Of a stretch of 64,000 nt of DNA, positions 14,501 through 54,136 are shown one piece after another. The stretch comes from a virus. Under the pieces are notes generated by a model, which was not told where the DNA came from, made no database searches, and was given only the letters and a program-made list of their open reading frames with translations. The DNA is taken from the IMG/VR virus record IMGVR_UViG_3300028534_000002; one strand, given 5' to 3'. Both the position numbers and the translations under genes were made by a program. Position 1 is the first letter of the stretch; the number at the start of each line of letters is the position of its first letter.

Positions 14501-14812
14501 AACACGTCCATTATCATATATATCAAACTGGTAACTATCTCCTGCATCAAACACTGATGATACAAAGCTATTGTATTTAGATTTAAGAGATTTTGTCCAA
14601 TCACTGTCTTCTTTTAGGAATCCTCTATCGTCTAATTCAAGTTTGTTTCTCTGATCATGTAGTGGATTATCGTCTCTGTAGTTTCTGTAATTTGCTAGTT
14701 CATAGTCGTACAGGAATCTGTCTGCACTACTGTATAAATCATTTACTTCATCATCATAGGATGCAAGCTGATTTTGTAAGTTTTCAAATTCTGATGGCAT
14801 ATTTTTCTCCAA
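5597..14812 (-). CDS. virion-encapsidated RNA polymerase-like giant protein (N4 gp50-type vRNAP), 3071 aa
   Basis: GGAG RBS. T7-like single-subunit polymerase motifs read directly: motif A YGEADGITSGP (Asp2196, nt 8225-8227); motif B RFLSKDPTMTFGYG (R-x3-K-x7-YG, aa 2350-2363, nt 7763-7765 for the Arg); motif C-like SIHSLDGS (Asp2627, nt 6932-6934). A-to-C spacing of 431 aa is close to what I recall for N4 mini-vRNAP (about 390). Sits at the distal end of the late operon as in N4. Confidence 0.8.
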   Translation of the reverse strand: MEKNMPSEFENLQNQLASYDDEVNDLYSSADRFLYDYELANYRNYRDDNPLHDQRNKLELDDRGFLKEDSDWTKSLKSKYNSFVSSVFDAGDSYQFDIYDNGRVVSGANKNYDASGSANAFDEMDDNEFIAYAKNVEEDPNAQNVLYSYKQYAGKDKDGNDQYNYKVGYAKAGAWDRVKGNFASQGIELLWDKRFGGAEEYENSFHKRFISNIAVDKGNNKSSGLNFNDGYTELYQKDLLGVDENQSRDDTYANAEKSLQSSNEYWKKHTGSDSVIDAFQYGAVRLGGDLIDVGSTSLGYVLEKLGAENSLEDNIGDTISDNAAKWVGYDTQAQTEATREAIAAWNRGDYFDAVFNDLGAKGNTMVESLPEMILMTGSLGAGAGVKAASLAKKFSSTEKALKVAEATGDIAKVKKYTSELNSLKTALRTEGADIAAVETLANQSTFTSLAKEASTNFGFKSVWAKNTNNVIEERMANGDDDISLGEFTAIAASQYFLTGLDKVAFDDIIKSTQLRSAFKSAYDAVKGTSYEKSVLGKIYSTSIGMAEATGKEGVQEYLQTWGEILGKDVGVDGKTFVESYNDKENQDEAIGAMAMGAGAGFVTHATASTGSYAMSSAGKALGTINMSTDNKLEDAAVASADLAKSVGRASKDSAKYLASKIAQTTDPEKLKVEVEKTYKDTLDKFGENLTSDMKEKIARDTASVIRQSKHPKEVKRDMLEALFASDSLSDDEKSSFFNKFAQDAIRDVVDLYKAESRGSDISSDVESDVGGLLDSATTDNKVDTLNPVKGKLGGIIDSIDIAIEDAEKQGIDSTDLKKARAVVNAYNTSDVFEKSLDSVGSEVDIVGFVGDTGSILKPSLKQYEANLIDNVRESDDGFASSEMLAEWAKERKNKLRFESDNGTPIRGVYNFVAQTGDENIRAANLARNVLSTVKDIDPNEKENLENAIRDFEDATVSDATKFINSKFSEGNKVQEKTMDPDEAVKLRNEIRSAKTANDANRILFSINNGFSDPQTANEFMKMYAGIISGKGNPLQTGSGKTARDFIREIESGTFSKTDIVGAINSGTLKGTDDELEYLSHRMNTRSSDVIQSIPEELEKGVVEAKTVDEVKLGFANIINNNALSYKLYKKLRDLVAKRVSEIEQKNSEPGDSNGTTKETENNSANIVENNSNAENYKNIQKQVEQVVTSESKNNSKENNANEGDSEPSGYSVGEYDTRSIDAEIREFEYLKQRLNDMTKDDKNLSDADRVVLKNVKKSIEKQLRKVDEKIKKYERAKERQEKGLEKNKLKNIDLKKEKSHRGNSSILANSKQAVLDAIDALKKSLKKIKNTISKLMKKRDSLKKVYDIIDAYESKGKVDIRSKKRVIDEIDNAIESTKEKKKELENKLNKESEESLRKKLKEDVKQSRKGNDSSSLRSSAKNKLMKLASIYQNQVKKIRSDIESQLKKLDKIDKATEYAKTSREKLEDAYDKIYNRYKESLEKKNNSVEKNKNTIMSEQKRISDLQMNLTVLAGKLKNGTIGKKEFDKQANKIEKRVKQHNENIAKHIKYINEIEDRFGDTESRFITRLRQISSKLNDDRDGSKQRKKILELEEKRRDIEAKTKEYVNKAMKELGNNNDVAVKVFLDIATVESSNKLRIESSLNAKISKPNDVIKDIKTAGSQFVEEVKNDNIKAYMKEKKTVLSRLGNLFNATKEQLLAWAELNKIDESVVKSVVNVSKYMHRIDDIKIIESTRTEVDNNGKIFHTDGKDFVSSLSAIGVESEQLKDALKFGTVMALMSYSSVKNNIASMDTDDISKDFGIDNVSAMKLKTMAFKGFVPMRTLESEVKSVVMSRLGIKFNSNIDIETSRLVEAGIEASIGANLNGLVIENDAGEIIQENVTGKNMHMVQIDTEKMMLWKEYKEDYSNIQYINEGSKRLPPKRMPYKVKENDTLINSFIKLDDKHKKDIEKNNETEMFFADTTEDFVKEYKKDKKQALKQFGYVELTNDMTIDEMKLQKAHNEKYEREADALVKHYESMKNQDGTVSSFYIPWGVTKSERMTIKSDLNVQESKIHRTFVISKDYKSKLDTRPGSKRLVDEIAITEELSNTEMFEVFLAQSFGMDPDKNSKYNVFKSIRSRIDVYGGNVSITYKDGESEWKALSDYVKGIGEDSDNLATIFHKFEGAHSVMAAKELRKLNRTSDTASFETVLYGEADGITSGPALLNMKVLGDHQLKMLEKAGIYTDKSKQRLERYAKFLLSKKHGIHEDLIELSHGSLVEAGKYHMDIVNGETETLKDGEIIVKRIEIDGDKYDAFLDLYTTVGQYSLEAKKAFESRRDKDGKTNFDKLSAFAKRLYGMVFEEGTLSELRFLSKDPTMTFGYGAMISSIQRALTWNSFIKAIRDKMKESKSIDILKKAISDSHVENLIVSYRNSNKKDPSKDDIESFKRDGAKLANEYVSNTKNYSIYDKDRDIFREPTDVELSRMIEKNEQYKFIEISDDVHAMVHSAYGRNTIGSFYKHALNKAFGEISDMRNAFKATDLLVSSVFNAKLKVKLDAIRKKNGSISKKKYFEEVIKLHESGFGHSLDNGETRQPLYKTDNSIKSNTRDFERVVVNGNEYFASVTPDGLTFKSNSGAAVTISIHSLDGSVMQESLKNNDFTNIYDAIIVGAVQSKITNATDIYNTEWVTKSLERQDFKLYKEKADKMVSSMTEDELDAFFNLTNDIKVVKKNVSVTEGKTNRAPVYVLDFKEKGKAPKRVLNKRYQGKTKYIMSNDGENASISINDSNGVNVARIDVFKDDSGQVVAKAEVFAVAPNGMFMKATKPVVVPLNIDSVADLSVDDAISAINRKVTKDTKTYIDTKNKTKEPMYTMLTKTIAVEKHEASIEPDGDWGFLGHNLLSIPFAITHGKNVVNEGIRYFNKNVNKIFSNQMFVAGTGIVEVNIAHTKKRPREIEDWSDDFKAMYSGIIKLYGTKLREFIQLDAAKNGLTVNDINAITRTIDFEKLELKYDINDIEQQLVHNKTDSVKKAVSYIESLLKQERLNLYGVYDMFIGKNANKKIDDKKQNIPPIDRVKKKFKAYFEDKTKGCL

Positions 14813-14851
14813 TATAAGTTATATTAGAGATTATACCATCATTAGGCTTTT

Positions 14852-21023: not shown

Positions 21024-21599
21024 TTAGATTCCTTGCGCTTCTCTTAATTGTTGTCTTTTAGCAATGGCCTCAAGCTCCGCTTTTGTTGGCATAGGAAGGA
21101 AGTCAACTTTGTATGCTGGTTTTGGTGCACCAACTTGAGCAACCTGCGTCCTCTTGTTATCTACTTTTTGATATCTTACTGACTGAAGGTTCTTGATGCA
21201 TCCCATAGGTAAAAACCATGGAGTTCCAAATACAACTCTGTTTGTATGCATTCCAACGATAGCATTACCCCATGTGATAAAAACAACTCTGTTTGAGTCA
21301 TCATTCTCATATGTTTCAATTTTTCTTAACTCAGTTACTTCAACTCTATGTAAAGCCATTAGTTCTCTTTTTAACTCTGCTCGTGTCTTTTTCTTCGACT
21401 TCTTTTTTTCGTCAACAGATTTTGCATCAGAAAATTCTCTGTTAAAATCATCTTCTACTTTATTTATCGCATTTGCAATTTCCTGCTTTGTTGGCTTATC
21501 TGGATCCTTTGCTTCTGGGAACCAGTGCAATCCATAGTCTTCTTCTGCAATCTTAAGTAAGTCATCTTTTGAATATTTAGAAATATCTTCTATCTTCAT
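21024..21599 (-). CDS. hypothetical virion-module protein (191 aa)
   Basis: ORF with AAGGA-type RBS, 1 nt upstream of the next gene. First conserved-block gene after the accessory island. Confidence 0.7.
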   Translation of the reverse strand: MKIEDISKYSKDDLLKIAEEDYGLHWFPEAKDPDKPTKQEIANAINKVEDDFNREFSDAKSVDEKKKSKKKTRAELKRELMALHRVEVTELRKIETYENDDSNRVVFITWGNAIVGMHTNRVVFGTPWFLPMGCIKNLQSVRYQKVDNKRTQVAQVGAPKPAYKVDFLPMPTKAELEAIAKRQQLREAQGI

Positions 21600-21660
21600 C
21601 CTGTTTGTCCTTGTGTTAAATTTGTACTATTGTATCATATGGAAGTTTAGGAGGAGATTT

Positions 21661-21681
21661 GAACCAGAAGAGTACTGGTTC
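21661..21681. repeat. GAACCAG-n7-CTGGTTC hairpin
   Basis: Perfect 7-8 bp inverted repeat preceded on the + strand by GATTT. Lies between the 225-aa gene and the 191-aa gene. Confidence 0.8.
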
Positions 21682-21709
21682 ATTGGAGTTGTTCTATGCT
21701 GTTTGTTTT

Positions 21710-21732
21710 AACTCCCCCTCTAAAGGGGAGTT
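21710..21732 (-). terminator. hairpin after the 225-aa gene (candidate terminator)
   Basis: AACTCCCC-n7-GGGGAGTT, 8-bp stem, about 45 nt past the stop. Confidence 0.5.
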
Positions 21733-21774
21733 AGATTTGTTATAAGTAGGTCGCTGATTTATTGGATGGATGGA

Positions 21775-22452
21775 CTAAACTTTAAAGAGTTTGTCGATAG
21801 CTTTTTCTTTCACAAGTAATGTGCCTTTTTTGCCATGAAATGATTTTCCTTCTACTGGAAGTCTTACTTGCCTTGTTACGACTTTTGTATCAATCAACCC
21901 CTTATCTGACATCATGTCGAGAAGTTCAGTTGCCGTAATGTTAAGTTCTGGATGCTCTTTAACGTATCTTGATGCGGTGATAAATTCTTCATCCCAGTCG
22001 TTAAATTTGTCTAGCTCTAGTTTATTAACTTTCTTCTCAAGCTTCTTGATAAGTCTTTGTTGCTCTTTGTGCTTCATTAGGGCTAGTTCGAATTTTGTTG
22101 CAAAGAAATCTGCTATAAGATTTGCTTTATGCTCTTTAACTTGTTTTGTGTTTCTCATTAATGCCAATAGTAACTCTACATGTGGCTGATACAATCTAAC
22201 ACGATTCCAATTGATTTCATTTCTATTTTCTTTTTCAACTAATTCCAATTTTGGTATCTGTATTTGGTCGGATTTTAAATCCACCCGATTTTTTATGTTC
22301 TCAATTATTCTATCTGGAAGCTCATCAAACAACTTCACATTTCTAGTAATTAATTTCTGAACTGCATCTAAGCTTACTTCGCAATATTCTGCTATATCAG
22401 TTACTACTGCGTAAGAATCTCCATTGGTGTCTTGTTTTATGATTTTGCTCAT
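21775..22452 (-). CDS. putative DNA-binding protein: N-terminal HTH plus C-terminal KilAC-like antirepressor-type domain (225 aa)
   Basis: N-terminus TDIAEYCEVSLDAVQKLI looks like a helix-turn-helix. C-terminus ITATELLDMMSDKGLIDTKVVTRQVRLPVEGKSF...GTLLVKEKAIDKL resembles the KilA-C pattern as I remember it. RBS AAAGGA. Confidence 0.45.
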   Translation of the reverse strand: MSKIIKQDTNGDSYAVVTDIAEYCEVSLDAVQKLITRNVKLFDELPDRIIENIKNRVDLKSDQIQIPKLELVEKENRNEINWNRVRLYQPHVELLLALMRNTKQVKEHKANLIADFFATKFELALMKHKEQQRLIKKLEKKVNKLELDKFNDWDEEFITASRYVKEHPELNITATELLDMMSDKGLIDTKVVTRQVRLPVEGKSFHGKKGTLLVKEKAIDKLFKV

Positions 22453-22497
22453 AAAATATCCTTTAAAATAATTTATGTGATTCCGTCAAAGTAGGGT

Positions 22498-22597
22498 ATC
22501 AGGACTTTCACCTGATTGCTTTTCGTCATACTGTGGGTAGAGTAGTTTTCATACTCTGTAATTCCGTGAAGTTTGGGTTGGATAGTCTTTCATATCC
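22498..22597. promoter_or_regulatory. array of three tandem hairpins with different stems but conserved loops and flanks
   Basis: On the + strand: GGGT-ATCAGG-actttca-CCTGAT (22498-22516), GGGT-AGAGTA-gttttca-TACTCT (22539-22557), GGGTT-GGATA-gtctttca-TATCC (22580-22597). ATTCCGT(c/g)AA is repeated between the units. Lies in the 5' leader of the 225-aa gene. Confidence 0.75.
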
Positions 22598-22607
22598 GTA
22601 GAAGTAT

Positions 22608-22616
22608 ATTATAGCA
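22608..22616 (-). promoter_or_regulatory. extended -10 sigma70-type promoter element (TGcTATAAT on the minus strand)
   Basis: Read directly; there is no good -35. It would start a transcript about 145 nt upstream of the 225-aa gene, spanning the three hairpins. Confidence 0.4.
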
Positions 22617-22628
22617 TATATTTGATTT

Positions 22629-22651
22629 GAACCAGTCAATGCAACTGGTTC
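22629..22651. repeat. GAACCAGT-n7-ACTGGTTC hairpin
   Basis: Perfect 8-bp arms (9 with the flanking T/A), preceded on the + strand by GATTT. Lies just past the micropeptide stop. Confidence 0.8.
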
Positions 22652-22663
22652 ATGAGAGTTTGG

Positions 22664-22711
22664 TTAGCGTTTACGTTTACCGCCACCTTTTTTCTTGGTT
22701 TTACAAGCCAT
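22664..22711 (-). CDS. 15-aa highly basic micropeptide MACKTKKKGGGKRKR (candidate small ORF)
   Basis: ATG preceded by AAAGGAG at 6-nt spacing; 15 codons then TAA. Bracketed by the two GAACCAGT hairpins at 22773-22799 and 22629-22651. Below the size cutoff of the ORF track. Confidence 0.4.
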   Translation of the reverse strand: MACKTKKKGGGKRKR

Positions 22712-22772
22712 GGTGATCTCCTTTCATAGTTTGTAAGTTAATTATATTGTATTTTACTTTATGGATTGATTT

Positions 22773-22799
22773 GAACCAGTGAGAGAGGTTGACTGGTTC
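22773..22799. repeat. GAACCAGT-n11-ACTGGTTC hairpin
   Basis: Perfect 8-9 bp arms, preceded on the + strand by GATTT. Lies 17 nt past the J-domain gene stop. Confidence 0.8.
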
Positions 22800-22816
22800 A
22801 TAATGGATTATTGTTA

Positions 22817-23902
22817 CTACAAGAAAGCTTTGTTTACTTTATCGAGAGCAGATTCTCTTTTTGTCTTCCTTCCATTCTTCTTTGTTGGCTCTTTTTTTAT
22901 GATACATTCTTTATCTAAATACTGCTTCAGCACTCTCATGTTTGCCTCGGCAATCAAAAAGTCTCTATCTGTTCCTCCTTTGTCTGGGTGATTCTCTGAT
23001 AATATCTTTTTTCTGAACGTTTTGTATTTCGATTCAGTGTTTAGCGTTTTTATAAAATCTTCATCAATGCTATATGTACTCTTTATTCTCTCTATTGGCT
23101 TGTCAGAGAATGCTATTGCAAGTATGTTTCCGTTATATTTAGCGTTCATTTCTGAGAATGTTAAGTATTCGGCTTCTAGTATAGCTTTGAGTTTTTTTTC
23201 TTCAGCAATCTTGTTTGCAATCTCTTCGCCTTTCTTGACGGCATTTGTATCTGCGAAGTCAATAAATTCACATAAAATTTCTTCACCATTTTCTTCTGTT
23301 TCTTTTACGCTGATATACTCCGCGTGAACCTTAAGCACATCCTCTCTCCATGAGCCGTTTCCGAATAAAACGTGTTTAAAATCATACACATGATTAACCT
23401 TTATTACATCAACCTTCATCGTTTTTGCATCTTCGTCATACCCGTCATAGTTTATAACCTGTTCACCGTGTTGCATCTGTGCAAGAAGGTATACTGCTTC
23501 AATATCCTCTCTTGCTATGCCTTTGCCTGTCAAATTGTATATTGTACCAATAGTAACACCTTTGCCCGTAGTGCTGTTGTAGTCAAAAAAGTATAACGTA
23601 CAATAGAACGGACCAATAATTTGAACAAGGTATGGTCTATCTTCTTTTGAATAGTCAGAAAGGTTTTCGTGTGCATCGACGTATTCTGCAAAGTCATTCA
23701 GTAGTCTTGTTTGTTTTCTGTTTAACTTTTTATTGTATTTTCTCAGCGTTTTCAGGATATGCTTTGAGTCGTTGTATAGTGACATATACTCTTCTTTTCC
23801 AAACTCTTCCTTTAGCATTCTCTTTGCCTCAATAAGGTTACCGTTAAAAGTAACCATAAGTTTCTTCGCTTTCATTAATTTAATTTTATAGTCTTTAGTC
23901 AT
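22817..23902 (-). CDS. phage J-domain (DnaJ-like co-chaperone) protein, 361 aa
   Basis: The C-terminal segment YKTFRKKILSENHPDKGGTDRDFLIAEANMRVLKQYL carries the canonical HPD tripeptide between two helices. The start overlaps the upstream endonuclease stop by 1 nt (TAATG). Confidence 0.7.
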   Translation of the reverse strand: MTKDYKIKLMKAKKLMVTFNGNLIEAKRMLKEEFGKEEYMSLYNDSKHILKTLRKYNKKLNRKQTRLLNDFAEYVDAHENLSDYSKEDRPYLVQIIGPFYCTLYFFDYNSTTGKGVTIGTIYNLTGKGIAREDIEAVYLLAQMQHGEQVINYDGYDEDAKTMKVDVIKVNHVYDFKHVLFGNGSWREDVLKVHAEYISVKETEENGEEILCEFIDFADTNAVKKGEEIANKIAEEKKLKAILEAEYLTFSEMNAKYNGNILAIAFSDKPIERIKSTYSIDEDFIKTLNTESKYKTFRKKILSENHPDKGGTDRDFLIAEANMRVLKQYLDKECIIKKEPTKKNGRKTKRESALDKVNKAFL

Positions 23903-25476
23903 TACGCCATCTCCTTATATTCAAATCTATATTCATTCCAATCTTTTCCATCTCTAAGTCTTCTTGTCAGTGTTGCATTGGCTATTCCATATTTATCGCA
24001 TATATCTTTTTGTTTATTGAGCGTGTCTATATGTTTTCCATTCTTATATATGAGTATGTCTTTACCTGCCATCCTTACCTGTTTGACTGGTTCAACATGT
24101 TCATCGAAGCTCCATAAGTAACCTCCTGCGTGCTTTCTCTTTCCGTTGCACACTGCACCAATATGTCCTATTCCTGTCTCTTTTGAAGCCTCTGTAATAC
24201 TATTGAACTTTGCAATTAGCTCTCCATCCAATGTGAACTGATAGACCTCTTTCTGTTTTGATGGCATAGTGTATTCTCTGCATGACCATCCAGTAGCTTT
24301 TTTGTGCGATGATTTAGGAGTGACTGGTTCAATATGTGCTTTTGTAATCTCTTTTGCCTCCTGTTTAGTTTTATACGCTTTGTCAAGCTTCTTGAGGTTT
24401 TCATACGCCTGTTTTGCAAGTTGAGCTTTTACAGCCTCTCTCTGTTTTGCTTTTTCTTCTTTAGCTCTCTTATCTTCAAAATAGTTTATAGCAACAAGCA
24501 CAGGTTTGCTATCGTCTAGTATTCTTGTTATTTCGCCAATGTCATCATTGTTTAGCTCGAACCATTCTCTGAAGATGTTTTTGTCAGAATATTTGTCATG
24601 CAAAAACTTTTCAACGGTTGTTACGAAGTCTATTTCTTCTGAGACATACAAGAGCTCTATACCGTTTGGGTTGGAGTTTTTTAGTGACGATATTCTTTTT
24701 TCAATATCATGAGTTATTCCTATCTTGTGTGCAATTGAGATTTCGTTATCTTTAATGTATGGAGTTGTAACAATATAAACTTTATCACTTGCAGTCATTG
24801 ACTTCAATGATAGCAACTCTTCTATGACTTTATCTCTCTGGTTCTCAGTAAGCTTATATACTGTTTTTGTTCTAGGCGACAACCCTTTGAAATCGTTTTC
24901 ATCAAACACATCTTTGTATTTTTCTATTGAGGACATAAGTGCTCTGTTTATTAGCTCAAAGTTTGCACTTAGCTCTGCCCCTAACTTTGCTGTATTTGAA
25001 CCAGTCCAAGATAAAGCCTTTAATCTAATAGCTTCTTTTGTTTTATCTGAGGCATCGAAGTATGAATTCTCTTTTGAGTGTGGAAGATCTTTATTTTTCT
25101 TTAGCAATTTTGTTCTTCCATTTACTGCGTACATTCTAATGTTTGAAAAACAATTGTACATATCAGTAACAAAATCATGAAGACTTTTCCACTCTGAATC
25201 GTTTTTTACAGAAGTGTTCCATATCTTTTTTAATAAACTATAGTATGGTTTTGAGCTTAGGCCATGAGTTCTTCTTGCATCACCATCATACTCTCTATTG
25301 ATTGAGCCTGCTGATAGAGCTTTTGATTTGCACTCTTTTGATCCACATGTTTTATTTACTTTGCCGTGACTCATTCTTTTTACTACATGATTATTGCATA
25401 TTGGGCACTCAAATAGTCCTTGTCTTACTCTTTGATTATTTAGTCTGGTTGGTTCAACTTCTTTAATAAGCTTCAT
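23902..25476 (-). CDS. free-standing homing endonuclease-like protein (Zn finger + T5orf172/GIY-YIG-superfamily nuclease + NUMOD-like HTH repeats), 524 aa
   Basis: CPICN...CGSKEC at the N-terminus. Central HKIGITHDIEKRISSLKNSNP...FLHDKY...FREWFEL matches the T5orf172 pattern. Two C-terminal repeats of the type ...ASKETGIGHIGAVCNGKRKHAGGYLWSF. Inserted just downstream of the capsid gene. Confidence 0.75.
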   Translation of the reverse strand: MKLIKEVEPTRLNNQRVRQGLFECPICNNHVVKRMSHGKVNKTCGSKECKSKALSAGSINREYDGDARRTHGLSSKPYYSLLKKIWNTSVKNDSEWKSLHDFVTDMYNCFSNIRMYAVNGRTKLLKKNKDLPHSKENSYFDASDKTKEAIRLKALSWTGSNTAKLGAELSANFELINRALMSSIEKYKDVFDENDFKGLSPRTKTVYKLTENQRDKVIEELLSLKSMTASDKVYIVTTPYIKDNEISIAHKIGITHDIEKRISSLKNSNPNGIELLYVSEEIDFVTTVEKFLHDKYSDKNIFREWFELNNDDIGEITRILDDSKPVLVAINYFEDKRAKEEKAKQREAVKAQLAKQAYENLKKLDKAYKTKQEAKEITKAHIEPVTPKSSHKKATGWSCREYTMPSKQKEVYQFTLDGELIAKFNSITEASKETGIGHIGAVCNGKRKHAGGYLWSFDEHVEPVKQVRMAGKDILIYKNGKHIDTLNKQKDICDKYGIANATLTRRLRDGKDWNEYRFEYKEMA

Positions 25477-25617
25477 CTAATTCTCCTTGTTTTGTTTAGA
25501 TAAGATAATTATACGGTAGTTTGGATTAGAAGAAGTTGAAAAATTGAAATTTTGGTTGGATTTTTTTAGTTCTATATTTATTAGTTGTTTTGCTACTTAA
25601 CTGTGTTATGAAATTTT

Positions 25618-25648
25618 GGGTCAGCTTAAGTTTTTTCTAAGCTAACCC
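25618..25648 (-). terminator. hairpin after the capsid gene (terminator or processing site)
   Basis: 11-bp stem GGGTCAGCTTA / TAAGCTAACCC with one mismatch. The mismatch is C-A on the + strand but G-U on the minus strand, consistent with minus-strand RNA. Confidence 0.55.
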
Positions 25649-25673
25649 ATTGTAAAATATGGTTACTTATGCA

Positions 25674-27032
25674 CTAGGCCACCTTGCCGCTCACGAGCAT
25701 CGTTCTAATGTGTTCAGGTTTGTTCACAAGTAGTCCGAAGTACCAGTCAATCGCAATTGAACCGCGATCTCCATGATTATCAATACCAGGAATAACTCTA
25801 GGAGCACCATGTTTGACACGAGCAACTTCACCTTGAAGAGCATATGTTTCAAATGAATCACTACCAACAACCAACATTGGGAATACGTCATAATGACCAT
25901 CTGTTACGTGCATGTTTGCTCCGCTATCTTCAATTCCGTCGCCATCATTGTCAGCTCCGTCAGTTGCATCCGCACCTTCACCTTTGAATACTGGCATGTC
26001 ATGAACTGAGATGAATCTGAAGTCACCAATTCGTCCAATTTCTCCATCTGCTGTTGTAGATGTTTTATTAATAACGGTTGAACCAGCAGGCGCAATTCCA
26101 GCACCATCAGCATATTCAGCTACATCTTGGAATAAGACTTTACCATTGTGTTCAAGATCTTCTAGTGTAGGAATAAGCTCTTGTGGAACAAAGATGTATC
26201 GTGCAGAACGAATTGTAACAGTATCAATCTTTGTTGAACCAGTCACCATGTTTGTATCAACAGGACATCTTGCTTCATTGAGTGACTGCTTAAGCATACG
26301 AAGCATTGGGAATGTTAACTGACATGTTTCATCAACTTCTTCGATAGTTGTCGCTCCACCACCATAAGTAGCATTTTGCATACCTTGAGTAATTAACTCA
26401 TTTCTGATCTGTGCTTCACGAATATCGGCATATGCTTCTGCAACTTTTTGCACTTGCTTTGTCAATAAAGATGTATCGGTATCAAGATCCATTGCTGCTC
26501 TAGTATATTGAATAGCAAAACCAAATCGATTAATACGTGCCTCAACGATATCACGCTTTGTACCAACGATGTTTACGGCTCCACCCTCTTCACCAAGAAT
26601 TGGGAATGCTCCAGTCTGTACGTTAAAGTCTCGACTTGAACCAAATAGGTTACCATCACCTTTTTGTACACGTACTTGACCTGCTCGCGCTTTAGCTTCA
26701 GCAAGCGTATCATGCTCTTGTCTTGTTGCTGGATCAGTTGGATCTGTCCAAGAGTACCATTTTCCAGGAACCATTTTTACACCATTTGCATCAATACCTT
26801 GATCGTTGATGTTTGCATCATGTAGAATTGGATATTCTCGATACTTCTTGATTTTTACACCATAGTTCTTTGGTTGCTTTCGTGCAGCACCCATTTGAGA
26901 GAACACTTTTTTCTTTGCTGCTTCAAGTACTGCGAATCTAGACCAATGAAAGTCATTTAGCTGAGCACCAACACTTGAAGTTGCTGGATCTAATCCACCA
27001 TCGTTATACACTTGTCCGTTAAAATCGGCCAT
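25674..27032 (-). CDS. major capsid protein (452 aa)
   Basis: Strong RBS AAGGAA. Lies immediately downstream of the acidic scaffold-like gene and downstream of the portal, as in N4-like genomes. Visibly higher GC and more G/C-ending codons than its neighbours. Followed by the hairpin at 25618-25648. Call is positional and compositional, not homology-verified. Confidence 0.65.
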   Translation of the reverse strand: MADFNGQVYNDGGLDPATSSVGAQLNDFHWSRFAVLEAAKKKVFSQMGAARKQPKNYGVKIKKYREYPILHDANINDQGIDANGVKMVPGKWYSWTDPTDPATRQEHDTLAEAKARAGQVRVQKGDGNLFGSSRDFNVQTGAFPILGEEGGAVNIVGTKRDIVEARINRFGFAIQYTRAAMDLDTDTSLLTKQVQKVAEAYADIREAQIRNELITQGMQNATYGGGATTIEEVDETCQLTFPMLRMLKQSLNEARCPVDTNMVTGSTKIDTVTIRSARYIFVPQELIPTLEDLEHNGKVLFQDVAEYADGAGIAPAGSTVINKTSTTADGEIGRIGDFRFISVHDMPVFKGEGADATDGADNDGDGIEDSGANMHVTDGHYDVFPMLVVGSDSFETYALQGEVARVKHGAPRVIPGIDNHGDRGSIAIDWYFGLLVNKPEHIRTMLVSGKVA

Positions 27033-27057: not shown

Positions 27058-28284
27058 TTATAGCATCTTATACATTTGTTCTAAGAATGCGTCATTGTCA
27101 AGATCCATAAGATCTCTTTTTTTGTTTGTTTTTGCAGTTGATTTATCAACCTGCTCACTTGATTTACTTGCTTTTTTTGCAGCCTCAAGTCTATTGTTTT
27201 TATTTTCAACTTTTTGTTTTACCTCTCTTTGTTCAACGGCTTCCTTTACTGGTTGCTCTTCAACAAGTCTTTGAGGTTCATTTTTTTTGACGTATTTCTC
27301 AGCGAGCGAATTGCTTGCTACAACATACTTGTCAAAATCACTCATATGTCTAAATTGTCCACTTAGGTCTCTAAGTTCAAGCGATTTGATTTCTTCTTGA
27401 ACCTTGTTAAATGAACCTGTTTTAATATGGTTTAGCAAATGTTGCTTTGAAGCATCATCATTGATTAGCTTCGTGATTGAGTCGCTATCCCATTTTTTGA
27501 CAACATTATCAACAAAAGGCTCTTCAATTCCAAGCTTTGCTGATGTGTCTAAAAGATCGTTAAATTTGATTTCAATCTCTGGAACCAAATGCTTAGAAGG
27601 ATCAATCGAGCTCTCATCAATCTCATCCAAGTCCAATTCCATTGGATCAATCTCATTCTCTTTCATTAGTTTCTTGAGTGCATCTGGGTTACCGTTTGCT
27701 GCTTCAAGAACCAATGCTAGTTTGTTCTGATCTTCAAGTAATCCGTTCTTTTTAAGCGCTTCCAGCATTGGTCGCTGCTTATCGAACGTATCAACTTTAC
27801 CAATCATTTCCGCATATTTCTTTTGCATCTGTATAATACTTTCAGGATCACTAAGTCCGTCAACTGTGAATCCATCAATATCAACTTTTGCTCCAGTAAG
27901 CGCTTCCTTGAATTTCTTTAGCTGTTCATACTCTTCAAGTTTTCGTCTTACATCTTCGTCAATGTCTAAATTTGCATTTTTGTCTGTTTCATCAGTTGTT
28001 TCCTCTGGTTGTTCCTGGTCGATGTCAATATCTTCCTCTGTTTCCTCAGAACCATCTGTTTCAACTACTTCAATGTTATCAGACTCTTCCTTAATGTTTT
28101 CTTCGTCACCTTCAACAGCATCATTGTCAATACTGTCCTGCTGAGTATCGTTATCTACTACATCGTCAACAGCACTAACTGGTTCATCAAGAACCAGTGG
28201 TTTCTGTGACTCTCTGTCGATAAACTCAAGAAAGTCCTCTGGACTCATTTCCATTGGGTCAATTTCATTTTCTGCTACAGACAT
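27058..28284 (-). CDS. scaffolding-like acidic protein (408 aa)
   Basis: Very D/E-rich, helical-looking sequence directly upstream of the capsid gene. Confidence 0.5.
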   Translation of the reverse strand: MSVAENEIDPMEMSPEDFLEFIDRESQKPLVLDEPVSAVDDVVDNDTQQDSIDNDAVEGDEENIKEESDNIEVVETDGSEETEEDIDIDQEQPEETTDETDKNANLDIDEDVRRKLEEYEQLKKFKEALTGAKVDIDGFTVDGLSDPESIIQMQKKYAEMIGKVDTFDKQRPMLEALKKNGLLEDQNKLALVLEAANGNPDALKKLMKENEIDPMELDLDEIDESSIDPSKHLVPEIEIKFNDLLDTSAKLGIEEPFVDNVVKKWDSDSITKLINDDASKQHLLNHIKTGSFNKVQEEIKSLELRDLSGQFRHMSDFDKYVVASNSLAEKYVKKNEPQRLVEEQPVKEAVEQREVKQKVENKNNRLEAAKKASKSSEQVDKSTAKTNKKRDLMDLDNDAFLEQMYKML

Positions 28285-29268: not shown

Positions 29269-29925
29269 TTATCTTCCAATATCCGTATTGATTTTTGCTG
29301 TTCTTCTTACTGTATCTATTCTATTTGTATTTCTTTTTACTCTCTCTTGTCGTAGTCCAGCTTGCTTTTGTCTTAAATCTAATTCTCTATTTACTCCATT
29401 TGACAGTCCAATTATACCTGCTATTTTTGCATTCTTTGTTGCGTCGTATCCTAGCTGACTAGACACTGCATATTCCTGAGCACCTTGAGACACGGCATTT
29501 GTTGCTGCCGATGTTAATACTTTAGTTGCAACCTTTCCACCCTTTCCTGGTATCCACTCTAATGGGTTTATTGATTCACCAATTGATCCAGCAACATTCC
29601 ATTCAGATGGATGCGTAGCTGTATCATATATGTACTTCCCTGTATTAACAATAATGTCTGTATTGCTTTTTGAGTTTTTTAAATCATCTACAATTTTATC
29701 GTAATCTGCTTTTCTGTTTGCACTCATCTGACTTGCTTTGTATTCATCGTCTCTTTGATTAGCATCATTTACTATTTTTGCAGATATTTTATCAGGATCA
29801 TTCCCAAGCATGTAGTCTTTTATCAAATCAAGTTTTGCAATTCCAGCTTGAGCAGACCTATTAAGTCTTGCTCCAAAGCTTTGATCATTGCTAAAAGTAT
29901 TAAACTGTCCCATTATCTTCACCAA
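29269..29925 (-). CDS. hypothetical head-module protein (218 aa)
   Basis: ORF overlapping the portal gene 3' end by 26 nt. Confidence 0.6.
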   Translation of the reverse strand: MVKIMGQFNTFSNDQSFGARLNRSAQAGIAKLDLIKDYMLGNDPDKISAKIVNDANQRDDEYKASQMSANRKADYDKIVDDLKNSKSNTDIIVNTGKYIYDTATHPSEWNVAGSIGESINPLEWIPGKGGKVATKVLTSAATNAVSQGAQEYAVSSQLGYDATKNAKIAGIIGLSNGVNRELDLRQKQAGLRQERVKRNTNRIDTVRRTAKINTDIGR

Positions 29926-32323
29926 TCATTTCATCTGGTGCAATAGTGCTTCTAATTTCAGGATCTTTCATTGGTTGCTTTGTGCTTGGCATTCTCTGTA
30001 TTGATGGAAGATCCTTTGTATACTTTGATGTATCTAGACTATTTTTGTTTAGTATGTTTCTAAAGATGTCATCTGCAGCATCATATGTATCATTCTGCAT
30101 TGTACCACTCTTTATGTAGTCAAGGTTTTTTTCTTTTGACGTTTTATCTTCATTCTTTTTCTCATCTTTAAGCTTGATATTCTCTTGCTCCCTCTTGGTC
30201 CTGATCTCTTCTCTCTCAAGGTTTGCCAAGTGATGGAATTCATTATCTTCTTTTTCCCACTCACGCTTAACACCAGTATCAATAAGTTCAAACTCTTGAT
30301 TAAATAGTTTAACCTGCGCATCCATCTTGTCTGCTTGTGCTAGTGCTAGTTCTGCTTGTGATTTATCTTTGATAACTTTTGCTTCTTGTGAACCAGCCAT
30401 GATTGATTCTTTTATTTCGTCTATTTTTGCATCTTTGAATTCCATCTCTTTTATCTTGGCTAGTAATTCTATTTGTGCCTTTTTATTTTCCAACTTAAGT
30501 CTCTCAAGCTCTAGTTGTTGCGCTAAAACCTGTTCTTCTGACGGTGGTTTACTAGCCTCTTCAATTGTTGCTCTAGCAAGATCTGGAAGATTCCAAAGCT
30601 CAGCTGTTTTCGCATAGTGCTGTGCTGCTAACTGAGGAGACATGCTTGCACCATTGTTGTGCAAGAAGAACATTATCTTTGATGCTTTGTTGTCTGCTAT
30701 ACTTGGAGTTAGAACATCTACTGATATGTTGTATTCATCATTGAGTGCATCAGTATCGCCTATCTGCTCTGACGATCCACTTGCATTTGCATATACTGCA
30801 TCATCCAATAAGAATGCTTTATTCATTGATAAGATCAAGTCCCCTGCCTGCTCTATCATCGTTAGAAACCTTCTCAAGATTTCCATCTCTCTGTTTGTTT
30901 TGGCATCTATTGGCATTGGAGAATTTGAGATCGATTGAGTTATTCTTGATCCAGCTCCACCATCCATGTCTTCAACACCAGTTAGAAGTGTTGAATGCTC
31001 TGTATATATGTTTTTCATGTCGAATAACACTTTTGGCACTGGCTCAACAGATTTTCTCATTATTGCTCTGCTTAGATCTGTCCCCCTGTTGACGTATACA
31101 GTTTTCCCTCTTTCATAGTTATCCTTTTGAATTGGTGTTTTAAATATACTGTCATCAATAAATTCTTGTCCAGCAGCGTTTTCGTTTGTTATATCTTGCA
31201 TAGCTCTGTATGTTGCTGTTAGAGATTTTTGATCATCCTCTAGTAGTGTTGCGTAAGGCTCTCCCCATATTTCGTCCTTAAGTGGCCTAAATGATGCAAT
31301 TACATATGGTATTTTTTTATGAGGATATGGGTTTTCTTCTAGCCTAACAAGTCTGTCTCCAATCCATGATGCAACAATTGGAACCAGGTTGTTGTCGCCG
31401 TTTATATCCCAGTATCCCCAATATTCATACATTGTAATTTTCTTTCTTGCCAAGTCAGAAAACTCAAACATATCATCTTCATCATAGTCTGTATATGTTG
31501 CAAGATTATAGTCGTTTGTTCCTACACCAGACTTCCCCTTTATATATTCTTTTACATAGTCAAGATTGAAGTATGAATCATTCTTTGAGAGTGTTGCATA
31601 GTCTGTCTCCTGAATATCTATAACAAATTTAACATTATTCCAATCACCTTTTGCAGATGGATCAACAATAATTGCCCTATTATCTCTTACTGAAAGCATT
31701 GGTCTATTTTCAATTATTCTCTCAACTTCAACCTCAACTTCCTCTATTCCTATTGGTAACTGTCCACTACTGCTTAGCTCATTAACTAGACTATTGTACA
31801 GATCCTGGTTCTTACTTGCCCTCACAAGTATTTCATTAATTTCAGCTTTATCTGTTGTATATATCTTTCTCTCTGTTATCTCCAACTCTTTTTTAGTCTC
31901 GAGTTTCCATCCAACCTTTATTACACATGTTCCTTCTATTGCAAAGTTTCTTGCGGCCTTATTTACTAGAGCAACCTTTCCTATCTCTTTATCCCATTGA
32001 TGGTTTAGTATGTCTGCGTTTTTTGATGCAACCTGTATCGCTCCACTTGTTTTTGCAGTCAAATCAAACAGTCTTTTTTTTGACAATACTGGACTTTCTA
32101 TATTTGGGATCACCCACTCCATCATTTTCTTAAATAGATAACTTCTGTATGTTGACTTTATCTTTTTTAGACCTTTTCTTTGCTCTGTATATTTGTCTTC
32201 ATTGTATATGCGATTATAGAAATCCAATCTATCTATCTGTCTTAAGTGTGAAGATTCAGACGATTTGTAGTCAGACTTAAGGTCTGATATCTTTGGTTTA
32301 TTTTTCCAACTGTTGCTTGACAT
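29900..32323 (-). CDS. portal protein (807 aa)
   Basis: Largest protein between the terminase/tail block and the capsid. Size and position are typical of a portal (N4 gp59 position). RBS AAGAGG, and TAATG coupling to the upstream gene. Confidence 0.6.
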   Translation of the reverse strand: MSSNSWKNKPKISDLKSDYKSSESSHLRQIDRLDFYNRIYNEDKYTEQRKGLKKIKSTYRSYLFKKMMEWVIPNIESPVLSKKRLFDLTAKTSGAIQVASKNADILNHQWDKEIGKVALVNKAARNFAIEGTCVIKVGWKLETKKELEITERKIYTTDKAEINEILVRASKNQDLYNSLVNELSSSGQLPIGIEEVEVEVERIIENRPMLSVRDNRAIIVDPSAKGDWNNVKFVIDIQETDYATLSKNDSYFNLDYVKEYIKGKSGVGTNDYNLATYTDYDEDDMFEFSDLARKKITMYEYWGYWDINGDNNLVPIVASWIGDRLVRLEENPYPHKKIPYVIASFRPLKDEIWGEPYATLLEDDQKSLTATYRAMQDITNENAAGQEFIDDSIFKTPIQKDNYERGKTVYVNRGTDLSRAIMRKSVEPVPKVLFDMKNIYTEHSTLLTGVEDMDGGAGSRITQSISNSPMPIDAKTNREMEILRRFLTMIEQAGDLILSMNKAFLLDDAVYANASGSSEQIGDTDALNDEYNISVDVLTPSIADNKASKIMFFLHNNGASMSPQLAAQHYAKTAELWNLPDLARATIEEASKPPSEEQVLAQQLELERLKLENKKAQIELLAKIKEMEFKDAKIDEIKESIMAGSQEAKVIKDKSQAELALAQADKMDAQVKLFNQEFELIDTGVKREWEKEDNEFHHLANLEREEIRTKREQENIKLKDEKKNEDKTSKEKNLDYIKSGTMQNDTYDAADDIFRNILNKNSLDTSKYTKDLPSIQRMPSTKQPMKDPEIRSTIAPDEMIGEDNGTV

Positions 32324-34122: not shown

Positions 34123-35584
34123 AAATTATATCGTCGATACATATATCGCCTTGATATCCTGTTGCATCATGGTATCTTATAAGTACCTTTTCTGCATTTG
34201 ATCCAGTTACGTCAAGATCAATCTGATGCCAATCTGTACCCTGGTCTCCAGATACAGAAAACTGAACAGTCTCACCGTCTGCATCATTCCATGTTACAAC
34301 TTCGAACACTCCAGAATTTGATCCTTCAAGTTGATACTGCAATGCTATTCTCGTTAATTTTGAAAAATAATTTGATGATAGCTCTAAAAACTCTTGGTTT
34401 CCATTTGATGACATCTCTCCATATACCATGTATGTGCCTTCTACTGGTTCTTGAGAACCAGTTCCAGACGATGGTGTTGTCGAGTCGTATCTGTTCCATT
34501 TACCAGCATCTGTTCCATTAACAGTATTTCCCCAATGGTCACTTTCAAAATGAAGATCTATATCATTCTCATCTTCCCATCCATTGCTGTATACTCCAGA
34601 TGGACCATCTCCGTATCCTGGCCTTGTTATTGATTTTCCAGTTCCTATCTCAACCCATTTGCTGACACTGTAGTCATATCTACAGAAGTTGTCTAGTTCT
34701 ATAAGATACGCAAGCTCTCCACTATACCTTGGCACATAATCCCATAGGTCTTCTCTTGTTTCAAAGAACTTTGTTAGTTGGATCTGATAATCTCCTATAT
34801 TGACCAGTCCAGGACTACGACCAGATGAAAATGTATCTAAAACACCCTTGTTGTCATGCGTGTGCAACGAACTAAGATCTGGCTTGTCAGTTAGTGAGTT
34901 GTATGACTTCTCAGAAAGGTTTGCTAGATTATGAGAATGTGTTCCATTTGCAACATCATCAACTCCTGTTCCAAAGTTCTTGTTGAATGCAGTATTCTTC
35001 TCAAAAGTATCTTCTTTAGAGTTTATCATACTTACTATAACTGGACCTTGTGATGCAGCAATCGACACTGTGCTATCAGTTGAATCTAGTCCGTCATACA
35101 CGTCTCTTTGCGCAACAACTGTATCAACCTCATTTCCATTGTATGTAAGATTTCCATCATCGTTTATACCTAATCCATCAAGAATGCTTTTGTTAGAATG
35201 ATCATGAACGTCAGGCTTATCTGTCAATGAATTGTAGCTTCTCTCTGATAAATCGGCTAGGTTATGCGTATGAACCAATGGTGCTTTTTCATTTAAAGCA
35301 AACTGAACGTCTGTTGATATAGGCTTGTCAATATCAGATGTATTGTCAACATTATCGAGTCCAATATGGTACTTCGTTACAGCATGTGGATTATTTGTAT
35401 TGTTTATGTGTTCAGAGTTGTCAACATTTAATTTAGCAGCGTTACCAAAAGTATGTGATTCAACAGACCCATCAAGGTTTGTCCAAGTGAATGTAACATC
35501 TTTTGCATCAACACCAGCCCAGTCCTTCATCACTGATAAGATTGCATTTGCATTCTGAACTAAAATATCTACTGCTCTTGCCAT
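34106..35584 (-). CDS. tail fibre / receptor-binding protein with MAM-like C-terminal domain (492 aa)
   Basis: Duplicated fibre motif H(T/S)HNLA(D/N)LSE(R/K)SYNSLTDKPD. The C-terminus ends ...VLIRYHDATGYQGDICIDDIIFE, resembling the GDIAIDDI end of MAM domains. Confidence 0.65.
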   Translation of the reverse strand: MARAVDILVQNANAILSVMKDWAGVDAKDVTFTWTNLDGSVESHTFGNAAKLNVDNSEHINNTNNPHAVTKYHIGLDNVDNTSDIDKPISTDVQFALNEKAPLVHTHNLADLSERSYNSLTDKPDVHDHSNKSILDGLGINDDGNLTYNGNEVDTVVAQRDVYDGLDSTDSTVSIAASQGPVIVSMINSKEDTFEKNTAFNKNFGTGVDDVANGTHSHNLANLSEKSYNSLTDKPDLSSLHTHDNKGVLDTFSSGRSPGLVNIGDYQIQLTKFFETREDLWDYVPRYSGELAYLIELDNFCRYDYSVSKWVEIGTGKSITRPGYGDGPSGVYSNGWEDENDIDLHFESDHWGNTVNGTDAGKWNRYDSTTPSSGTGSQEPVEGTYMVYGEMSSNGNQEFLELSSNYFSKLTRIALQYQLEGSNSGVFEVVTWNDADGETVQFSVSGDQGTDWHQIDLDVTGSNAEKVLIRYHDATGYQGDICIDDIIFESED

Positions 35585-54104: not shown

Positions 54105-54136
54105 TGAACCAGTGAGTGTGTAAGCTCATTGGTTCA
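54105..54136 (+). other. TGAACCAGTGAG-n8-CTCATTGGTTCA hairpin after family-B gene
   Basis: 12-bp stem with a single G-T (G-U) pair on the + strand, 8 nt past the stop at 54097. Confidence 0.75.

Follow-up and report, generated by a model that had tools for sequence, protein, structure and literature searches.

A mosaic accessory region between the capsid and gp55-like genes of an N4-like phage lineage

We analysed 64,000 nucleotides (nt) of the viral record IMGVR_UViG_3300028534_000002 (the window), in which a region of about 4 kb (positions 21600-25673) separates the major capsid protein gene from a gp55-like gene of the structural block. At least four modules, each with a history of its own, form the mosaic of this region. 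We read the region, with a probability of about 0.65, as a hyperplastic hotspot of accessory genes between the capsid and gp55-like genes, the content of which would be explained by turnover of homing endonuclease genes together with recombination at repeated stem-loop/promoter units. The swapping of optional genes at this junction is ordinary phage genome plasticity and not the work of one mobile takeover cassette, as had been proposed in a first-pass annotation of this DNA. The feature noticed by that annotation is real and was described mostly accurately, but its interpretation was half right: the region is accessory and mosaic, and it is not one functional cassette.

Gene content of the junction in the window and its relatives

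According to the first-pass annotation, the capsid gene of N4-like genomes is followed directly by the genes for internal virion proteins. This holds for coliphage N4 and for Acinetobacter phage XC38, in which the capsid gene is followed after ~63 nt by gp55 and by a gp55-type gene of 196 amino acids (aa), respectively, and then by the virion protein genes and the gene of the virion RNA polymerase (vRNAP). In the window, every gene within 15-51 kb lies on the minus strand, in the order portal, 408 aa, major capsid protein, 524 aa, 361 aa, 225 aa, 191 aa, 449 aa, 848 aa, 215 aa, 467 aa and the 3071-aa vRNAP gene. Since the 191-aa protein is homologous to the gp55-type protein of N4 and XC38 (phrog_2130; BLASTP expectation value (E) 2e-10), ~4.07 kb (21600-25673) are extra in the window, as had been noted. 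The guanine plus cytosine (G+C) content of this island is similar to that of its flanks.

The phage is a distant relative of N4 and belongs to a little-sampled N4-like lineage, the members of which were found as metagenomic contigs only. Its capsid protein shares at most 35% identity with any record among 477 Schitoviridae records, and none of 50,697 phage records matched the region in a search for near-identical DNA. Thirteen contigs of the same lineage were gathered from IMG/VR, the protein database and contig look-ups; a capsid-alignment scan of metagenome contigs gave one weak locus, and the relatives came from the protein database and the look-ups. Typical N4-like phages have genomes of ~70-80 kb. 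The contigs of the lineage reach 87-112 kb (99,878 nt for the window's own contig), which points either to larger genomes or to concatenation in the assemblies.

Relatives with 63-92% capsid identity to the window carry differing gene sets at the junction, and those with 49-54% carry no insert (Table 1). The region is therefore a variable hotspot that arose within the clade. A fixed core set of genes at this position was not seen among the relatives, and the insert-free junctions of N4, XC38 and the 49-54% relatives bear out that the region is accessory and interrupts a conserved capsid-to-vRNAP block.

Table 1. Content of the region following the capsid gene in contigs of the lineage, in order of capsid protein identity to the window.
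Contig	Capsid identity	Content of the junction
L002	92%	KilA-N+NUMOD gene, small ribbon-helix-helix open reading frame (ORF), stem-loop 1, micro-ORF
L008	79%	524-type gene (60% identity); contig ends
L003	78%	KilA-N+NUMOD gene, small ORF, stem-loop, opposite-strand micro-ORF, gp55-like gene
L009/L010	77%	KilA-N gene, one stem-loop/promoter unit, gp55-like gene
L016	70%	524-type gene (37% identity); contig ends
L011	67%	four other small genes, one Rha-like
L137	65%	variant stem-loop, decayed KilA-N remnant, Rha-like gene with 225-type leader, gp55-like gene
L012	63%	gp55-like gene directly, then two reverse-strand genes (one KilA-N)
L013/L014	54%	no insert
L015	49%	no insert

The slot directly downstream of the capsid gene illustrates this variability. 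It holds a 524-type gene in the window, L008, L016 and L140 (79% identity for the last), a KilA-N+NUMOD gene in L002, L003 and L009/L010, and neither of the two in L013-L015. As can be seen from Table 1, the two types alternate irrespective of capsid relatedness, and their products have a homologous NUMOD C-terminus (29% identity, E 5e-10). In L009/L010, neither a 524-type gene nor the micro-ORF nor the 225-aa gene is present at the junction.

The other modules follow distributions of their own. Homologues of the 225-aa protein were found in 8 contigs, in all cases inside the structural block: in the window, L138 and L139 the gene immediately precedes the gp55-like gene, in L003 it stands between the last gene for an internal protein and that of the vRNAP, and in L137 it follows the portal gene. 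There are two alleles of the micro-ORF, of which MACK(T/K)KKKGGGKRKR lies in forward orientation in the window, L002 (5357-5404) and L139 (180-224), and MACKKKRKCKGKKCKK lies on the opposite strand in L003 (12906-12956), L138 (~908-960) and L140 (~1660-1710). With regard to the 361-aa gene, contig L140 from another metagenome keeps the TAATG overlap with the 524-type gene but continues with an ORF of 59 aa, the first 29 codons of which are common with the 361-aa gene. The nucleotide homology between the window and L140 stops at window position 23817, and the 1-kb body of the 361-aa gene is thus unique to this genome.

Stem-loop/promoter units at the module boundaries

Three inverted repeats of the type TGAACCAG(T)...(A)CTGGTTCA lie within the island, 3' of the 361-aa gene, of the micro-ORF and of the 225-aa gene, which confirms the hairpin array that had been noticed before. 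The 3' arm of each stem-loop continues into TTCAAA, and a -10-like box follows 17-18 nt further on (units 1 to 3 in Table 2). In an alignment of 11 such units from the window and its relatives, the stems are invariant, the loops measure 5-16 nt and the -10 box stands at a near-constant distance; in L137 the stem differs in both arms in a compensatory manner (GAACCAC/GTGGTTC). Of the four GAACCAG stem-loops in the 64-kb window, three fall in the 4-kb island. The only one outside (54106-54135) is located between plus-strand genes and has one arm mismatch and a 16-nt loop. In the relatives, units flank the KilA-N, micro-ORF and Rha-like genes, and an equivalent of unit 3 precedes the 186/189-aa gene in L009/L010 and L139. 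The earlier statement that a hairpin delimits each gene applies at three junctions of the window and fails at the capsid/524 and 524/361 junctions.

The boundaries of exchanged segments coincide with these units and with a -10-like box. In an alignment of the window with L008, L016 and L002, the homology between the window and L002 stops at the TATAAT box that ends a conserved post-capsid segment (BLAST end point 25511), and this box is therefore the left breakpoint of the replaced segment. The right breakpoint is unit 1, where the homology resumes exactly (22800). From its sequence we infer that the TATAAT box is a promoter, although it was not flagged by the promoter scan. Upstream of this segment, directly 3' of the capsid stop codon, the window has an imperfect stem-loop, and L002 holds a stem-loop of another sequence at the same place. 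The 225-aa cassette is bracketed by stem-loop/promoter units in the window and in L003, with the 3' flank preserved, and in L139 the 225-type cassette lies between two identical 38-nt unit copies, which form direct repeats.

A rigid dimeric protein is unlikely to use the stem-loop as its operator, given that the spacing of the arms varies between 5 and 16 nt. A scan of genome contigs for TGAACCAGT-N5-12-ACTGGTTCA revealed, among the matches listed, single scattered matches in unrelated taxa and no clue to the host.

The stems are built of GAACCAGT, the most over-represented octamer of the window, with 51 copies compared to 1.4 expected from dinucleotide-preserving shuffles. The octamer is 19-fold above the third-order Markov expectation, and its copies are found in every reading frame and on either strand. 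It is not specific to the island, as its sites are spread across the whole window (e.g. at 258, 5236, 26236 and 63411). Coliphage N4 (L141-L143) is enriched as well: 21 copies were counted in 28 kb versus 0.95 expected, and 48 copies, 35 of them on one strand, in the whole genome of 70 kb. Intergenic GAACCAG stem-loops were not found in N4, and XC38 showed no enrichment of the octamer. Sister lineages are enriched in their own stem variants, GAACCAC in L137 and GATCCAG in L138 and L008. Inverted pairs of the opposite order, ACTGGTTC-N4-5-GAACCAGT, are present at 28178-28198 and 34443-34462, within the coding sequences of the 408-aa and 492-aa genes. A literature search on the octamer returned nothing relevant.

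Genes and other features of the region

The coordinates of all features are compiled in Table 2. The 524-aa protein combines a conserved Cys-rich N-terminus, a T5orf172 (GIY-YIG superfamily) core at residues 233-318 and a tandem NUMOD-like DNA-binding C-terminus. Pfam matches to T5orf172 (PF10544, E 6e-11), MUG113 (PF13455, E 7e-12), NUMOD1 (E 6e-7) and an I-HmuI NUMOD-like domain (E 4e-5), as well as a match of residues 357-459 to the 'homing endonuclease' model of PADLOC (E 9e-12), bear out the previous assignment as a putative T5orf172/NUMOD homing endonuclease gene. The T5orf172 core is complete, with profile positions 3-98 of 101 covered. Likeness to annotated homing endonucleases of other phages is confined to individual domains (~37-41% identity over short stretches), and the Cys-rich N-terminal region is restricted to the lineage. 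The gene is under purifying selection, with a ratio of nonsynonymous to synonymous divergence (dN/dS) of ~0.10 in comparison to L140, the synonymous divergence being saturated. In L137, a decayed KilA-N remnant is located 3' of the capsid gene (14540-14830), the translation of which, KIHSELLIEFARQISINFEIWCDNAIYL, resembles the L002 and L003 proteins; judged by this resemblance, it is consistent with a degenerated earlier occupant of the site.

The stop codon of the 524-aa gene overlaps the start codon of the 361-aa gene (TAATG), and AAGGAG precedes this ATG by 8 nt. The first-pass annotation had called the second gene a translationally coupled J-domain protein, of which the coupling stands and the J domain is supported in part. 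Searches of 5.8 billion proteins and, exhaustively with HMMER, of 1.8 billion cluster representatives returned the protein itself, the 59-aa fragment and a TPR-repeat protein, the last match (KKLLTENHPDYA) being spurious. The protein matches no Pfam family. The sole support by sequence comparison comes from an alignment of its C-terminal domain with the J domain of Tim14 (2guz_A) over HPDKGG (E 0.004). The region in question (~residues 285-335) reads KYKTFRKKILSEN-HPD-KGG, with a basic helix II and the HPD in the loop between helices II and III. The model of the whole protein had a predicted local distance difference test (pLDDT) score of 44 and the Foldseek search with it was uninformative; it was rerun with the C-terminal domain alone. 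This domain was modelled with a helix at 27-40, the HPD at 42-44 and a second helix at 49-68, with a core pLDDT above 90. The top three Foldseek matches were 1faf (the J domain of polyomavirus T antigen), 2guz_B (Tim16; template modelling (TM) score 0.68, root-mean-square deviation 2.7) and 2guz_A (Tim14; 33% identity), and five further J-domain proteins followed lower in the list, all of these with non-significant E-values of at least 1.3. On the basis of the Tim14 alignment and the model, the C-terminus of the 361-aa protein is probably a J domain.

The 15-aa basic micropeptide reported earlier corresponds to a real ORF behind AAAGGAG that is conserved in relatives. The micro-ORF encodes a polybasic, Cys-containing peptide of 15-16 aa and has its own Shine-Dalgarno sequence and -10 box. 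Between L003 and L140 it differs by synonymous changes only. A recent transfer of this module was rejected, as its 95% identity to L002 is only a slight excess over the 83-90% found over most of the capsid gene. The product may be a small virion or DNA-associated peptide.

The 225-aa protein has a DNA-binding domain of weak likeness to Rha at its N-terminus, a conserved domain at its C-terminus and a coiled coil. The Rha match is below threshold (22.7 bits versus a cut-off of 29.9), and weak matches of this kind were obtained for 7 of 9 family members. The proposed helix-turn-helix/KilAC-like identity did not hold with regard to KilAC, as the family gave no ANT/KilAC match; the family profile found no solved structure, and the protein had no match in 50,697 phage records. 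Its gene has a dN/dS of ~0.18 at saturated synonymous divergence, which indicates purifying selection. A homologue of 213 aa in L139 (440-1081) shares 85% identity with the C-terminal half and is unrelated in the N-terminal half, which by sequence is a domain replacement within the Rha-like family. The gene is preceded by a conserved leader, which is also present at L139 262-440 and L137 14960-15118 and, in L137, is kept even upstream of a differing 238-aa protein. Rfam recognised no family in the region including this leader, the stability of the leader was ordinary compared to shuffled sequences (z-score 0.12), and a 19-mer from it had no match in viral contigs.

Table 2. Features of the capsid/gp55 junction in the window.
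Feature	Position	Strand	Description
Portal gene	29900-32323	-	
Capsid gene	25674-27032	-	phrog_1357, E 8.6e-66
Imperfect stem-loop	25618-25648	-	GGGTTAGCTTAG...CTTAAGCTGACCC; directly 3' of capsid stop codon
Conserved post-capsid segment	25507-25560	-	ends in TATAAT -10-like box (25507-25512); 5' of 524-aa gene
524-aa gene	23902-25476	-	ORF listing
361-aa gene	22817-23902	-	ORF listing
Unit 1	22772-22800	-	TGAACCAGT-N11-ACTGGTTCA, TTCAAA, 18 nt, TACAAT/TATAAT
Micro-ORF, 15 aa	22664-22711	-	MACKTKKKGGGKRKR; AAAGGAG (strong Shine-Dalgarno) upstream
Unit 2	22628-22652	-	TGAACCAGT-N7-ACTGGTTCA, TTCAAA, 17 nt, -10-like box
Leader of 225-aa gene	22453-22627	-	conserved, ~150 nt; three short hairpins with UGAAA-type loops; L139/L137 alignment
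225-aa gene	21775-22452	-	ORF listing
G+C-rich stem-loop	21709-21733	-	TAACTCCCC...GGGGAGTTA, then AAAACAAACA; 3' flank of 225-aa cassette, common to L003
Unit 3	21634-21682 (stem-loop 21660-21682)	-	TGAACCAG-N7-CTGGTTCA, TTCAAA, 18 nt, TATGAT/TACAAT; 5' of 191-aa gene
191-aa gp55-like gene	21024-21599	-	phrog_2130

Competing readings and known systems

If the junction is a hyperplastic hotspot, its parts could work together as follows. The post-capsid promoter would drive a free-standing gene of the homing endonuclease type, for which KilA-N+NUMOD genes substitute elsewhere in the lineage. The coupled downstream ORF would have become the 361-aa ORFan in this genome, and its C-terminal J domain may recruit host DnaK/Hsp70 via the HPD loop. 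The polybasic micro-ORF, with a stem-loop on either side, and the Rha-like gene, with its conserved leader, would each be transcribed from a promoter of their own. The units would end or weaken the transcription that reads through from the capsid gene, which is strongly expressed, restart transcription of each cassette and of the downstream virion genes, and supply short identical sequences at which recombination may insert, delete, invert and relocate cassettes.

Several observations weigh against this reading. The stems lack a U-tract and are therefore not canonical intrinsic terminators. Promoter-like matches are no commoner in the region than in shuffled sequence (11 versus 15.9), and the promoter reading thus rests on the conserved position of the box after each stem-loop. 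Near the island, the identity profile between the window and L002 contains no clear co-conversion tract of raised identity. The strong purifying selection on the 524-aa gene, at saturated synonymous divergence, suits a domesticated regulator equally well as an active homing enzyme. As to the J domain, Pfam DnaJ (PF00226) did not match the 361-aa protein even at E-values up to 10, and the region around the HPD motif is weakly specific, given that the spurious TPR-repeat match contains 'ENHPDYA'. Moreover, the relatives are for the most part short contigs and several of these break off within the region, so that the calls of presence and absence are incomplete.

According to one alternative, the genes are domesticated and specific to the lineage: the T5orf172+NUMOD and Rha-like proteins would regulate the capsid or other late genes, and the J-domain protein would act as an assembly helper. 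We keep this reading as a minority option on account of the strong selection that the dN/dS values given above indicate for the 524-aa and 225-aa genes. It is also in line with the confinement of the 225-aa family to the structural block in 8 contigs, with the high conservation of the micro-ORF and the leader, and with the capsid-adjacent position, which parallels that of CapR and its targets (PMC8096241). However, close relatives do without each of the genes at this site, as exemplified by L009/L010, alternative occupants interchange irrespective of phylogeny, one copy has decayed in L137, and the T5orf172 core has remained complete.

A further and similarly tentative proposal is that the units constitute a dedicated cassette-exchange and insulation system of the lineage, with the junction as main acceptor site. 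The octamer is enriched and strand-biased genome-wide, in coliphage N4 as well, and co-varies with the stems in the sister lineages, which would point to a conserved protein recognising this word. In that case, recent capture or new origin would account for the invertible micro-ORF and for the J-domain ORFan.

The single mobile cassette for host takeover or counter-defence, moving as a whole 4-kb unit, that the first-pass annotation had in mind was not borne out and is improbable. It is true that a gene of mobile type, a J-domain gene and a gene for a DNA-binding protein adjoin here, that the region is absent from canonical relatives and that the 524-aa and 361-aa genes are translationally coupled. 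On the other hand, none of the relatives has the set as a unit, the distribution differs from module to module, and only this genome has the body of the J-domain gene. PADLOC matched the 524-aa protein only to its homing endonuclease model and to PDC-S57, and gave no match for the 361-, 225- and 191-aa proteins, so that the region contains no match to a defence or anti-defence family apart from nuclease-type models. The G+C content is that of the flanks, and the location of the genes in the late structural block and on the late strand would, by analogy with N4, argue against an early takeover role.

Finally, a chimeric join in the metagenomic contig is very improbable: the window does come from one contig and nothing corresponds to the 1-kb body of the 361-aa gene, but independent contigs from other assemblies reproduce the junctions piecewise (L140 the 524-aa gene with its TAATG overlap and 29 initial codons of the ORF that follows; L002 and L139 stem-loop 1, micro-ORF and stem-loop 2; L139 and L138 the 225-type followed by the 191-type gene; L008 and L016 the capsid followed by the 524-type gene), and the part without counterpart forms a single uninterrupted ORF, in frame and typical in composition.

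Among known systems, the hotspot at the capsid/gp55 junction can be compared to several phage elements. The seg and mob genes of phage T4 are free-standing homing endonuclease genes that are intergenic and optional among relatives. The 524-type genes are likewise optional, intergenic nuclease-type genes between conserved genes, but differ in nuclease family and DNA-binding modules. The closest analogue of the region is the promoter-early stem-loop (PeSL) cassette of T4-type phages, in the hyperplastic regions of which recombination is described at stem-loop/promoter units that also drive and insulate the cassettes (Arbiol et al. 2010, PMC2839356; Comeau et al. 2014, PMC4122927). Both systems have repeated intergenic units of a stem-loop and a sigma-70-like promoter that are concentrated beside ORFans or optional genes, and in both the breakpoints of insertions, deletions, replacements and relocations between relatives fall at these units. 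In contrast to PeSL, which are located in early regions, the units described here are unrelated in sequence and lie in an N4-like podovirus within the late structural block; their stem is built of an octamer that is over-represented genome-wide, and they are putative terminators and promoters.

T5orf172 homing endonuclease genes were reported to cluster near essential phage genes and to shuffle domains (Barth, Dunham and Seed 2023, PMC10448857). The 524-type genes resemble those of the ICP1 type in that they combine the core with modular DNA-binding domains, are capsid-adjacent and patchily distributed, and have shuffled a domain with a KilA-N protein. They differ in their low identity over short stretches, in the lineage-specific Cys-rich N-terminus and in the lack of a flanking high-identity 'HEG (homing endonuclease gene) island' in the identity profile of the window and L002. 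CapR, a repressor of the ICP1 capsid operon, is derived from a homing endonuclease (Netter et al. 2021, PMC8096241) and thus represents another protein of this descent that is associated with capsid gene expression; it is satellite-encoded and retains the DNA-binding part only, whereas the 524-aa protein is phage-encoded and keeps a complete T5orf172 core. With Rki, the J-domain protein of the T4-related phage RB43 (Perrody et al. 2012, PMC3486835), the 361-aa protein has in common that it is a phage ORFan with an HPD-bearing candidate J domain, which would be expected to engage host DnaK. The two proteins have no detectable sequence similarity, and the J domain of the 361-aa protein is C-terminal, nearest to the short Tim14/Pam18 type and fails the Pfam DnaJ model, the N-terminal 270 residues being without relatives.

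As a type of system, the island is not new. The structural block of N4-like phages is commonly portrayed as rigid and syntenic, and the lineage analysed here shows a plasticity hotspot inside this block. The logic of this hotspot would be that of the promoter/stem-loop cassettes of T4-type phages, with unrelated sequences and coupled to the turnover of genes of the homing endonuclease type. The region offers two alternative nuclease-type proteins with a common DNA-binding end, a phage ORFan with a probable J domain and a conserved polybasic micro-ORF. This micro-ORF and the octamer common with N4 are the most promising leads.

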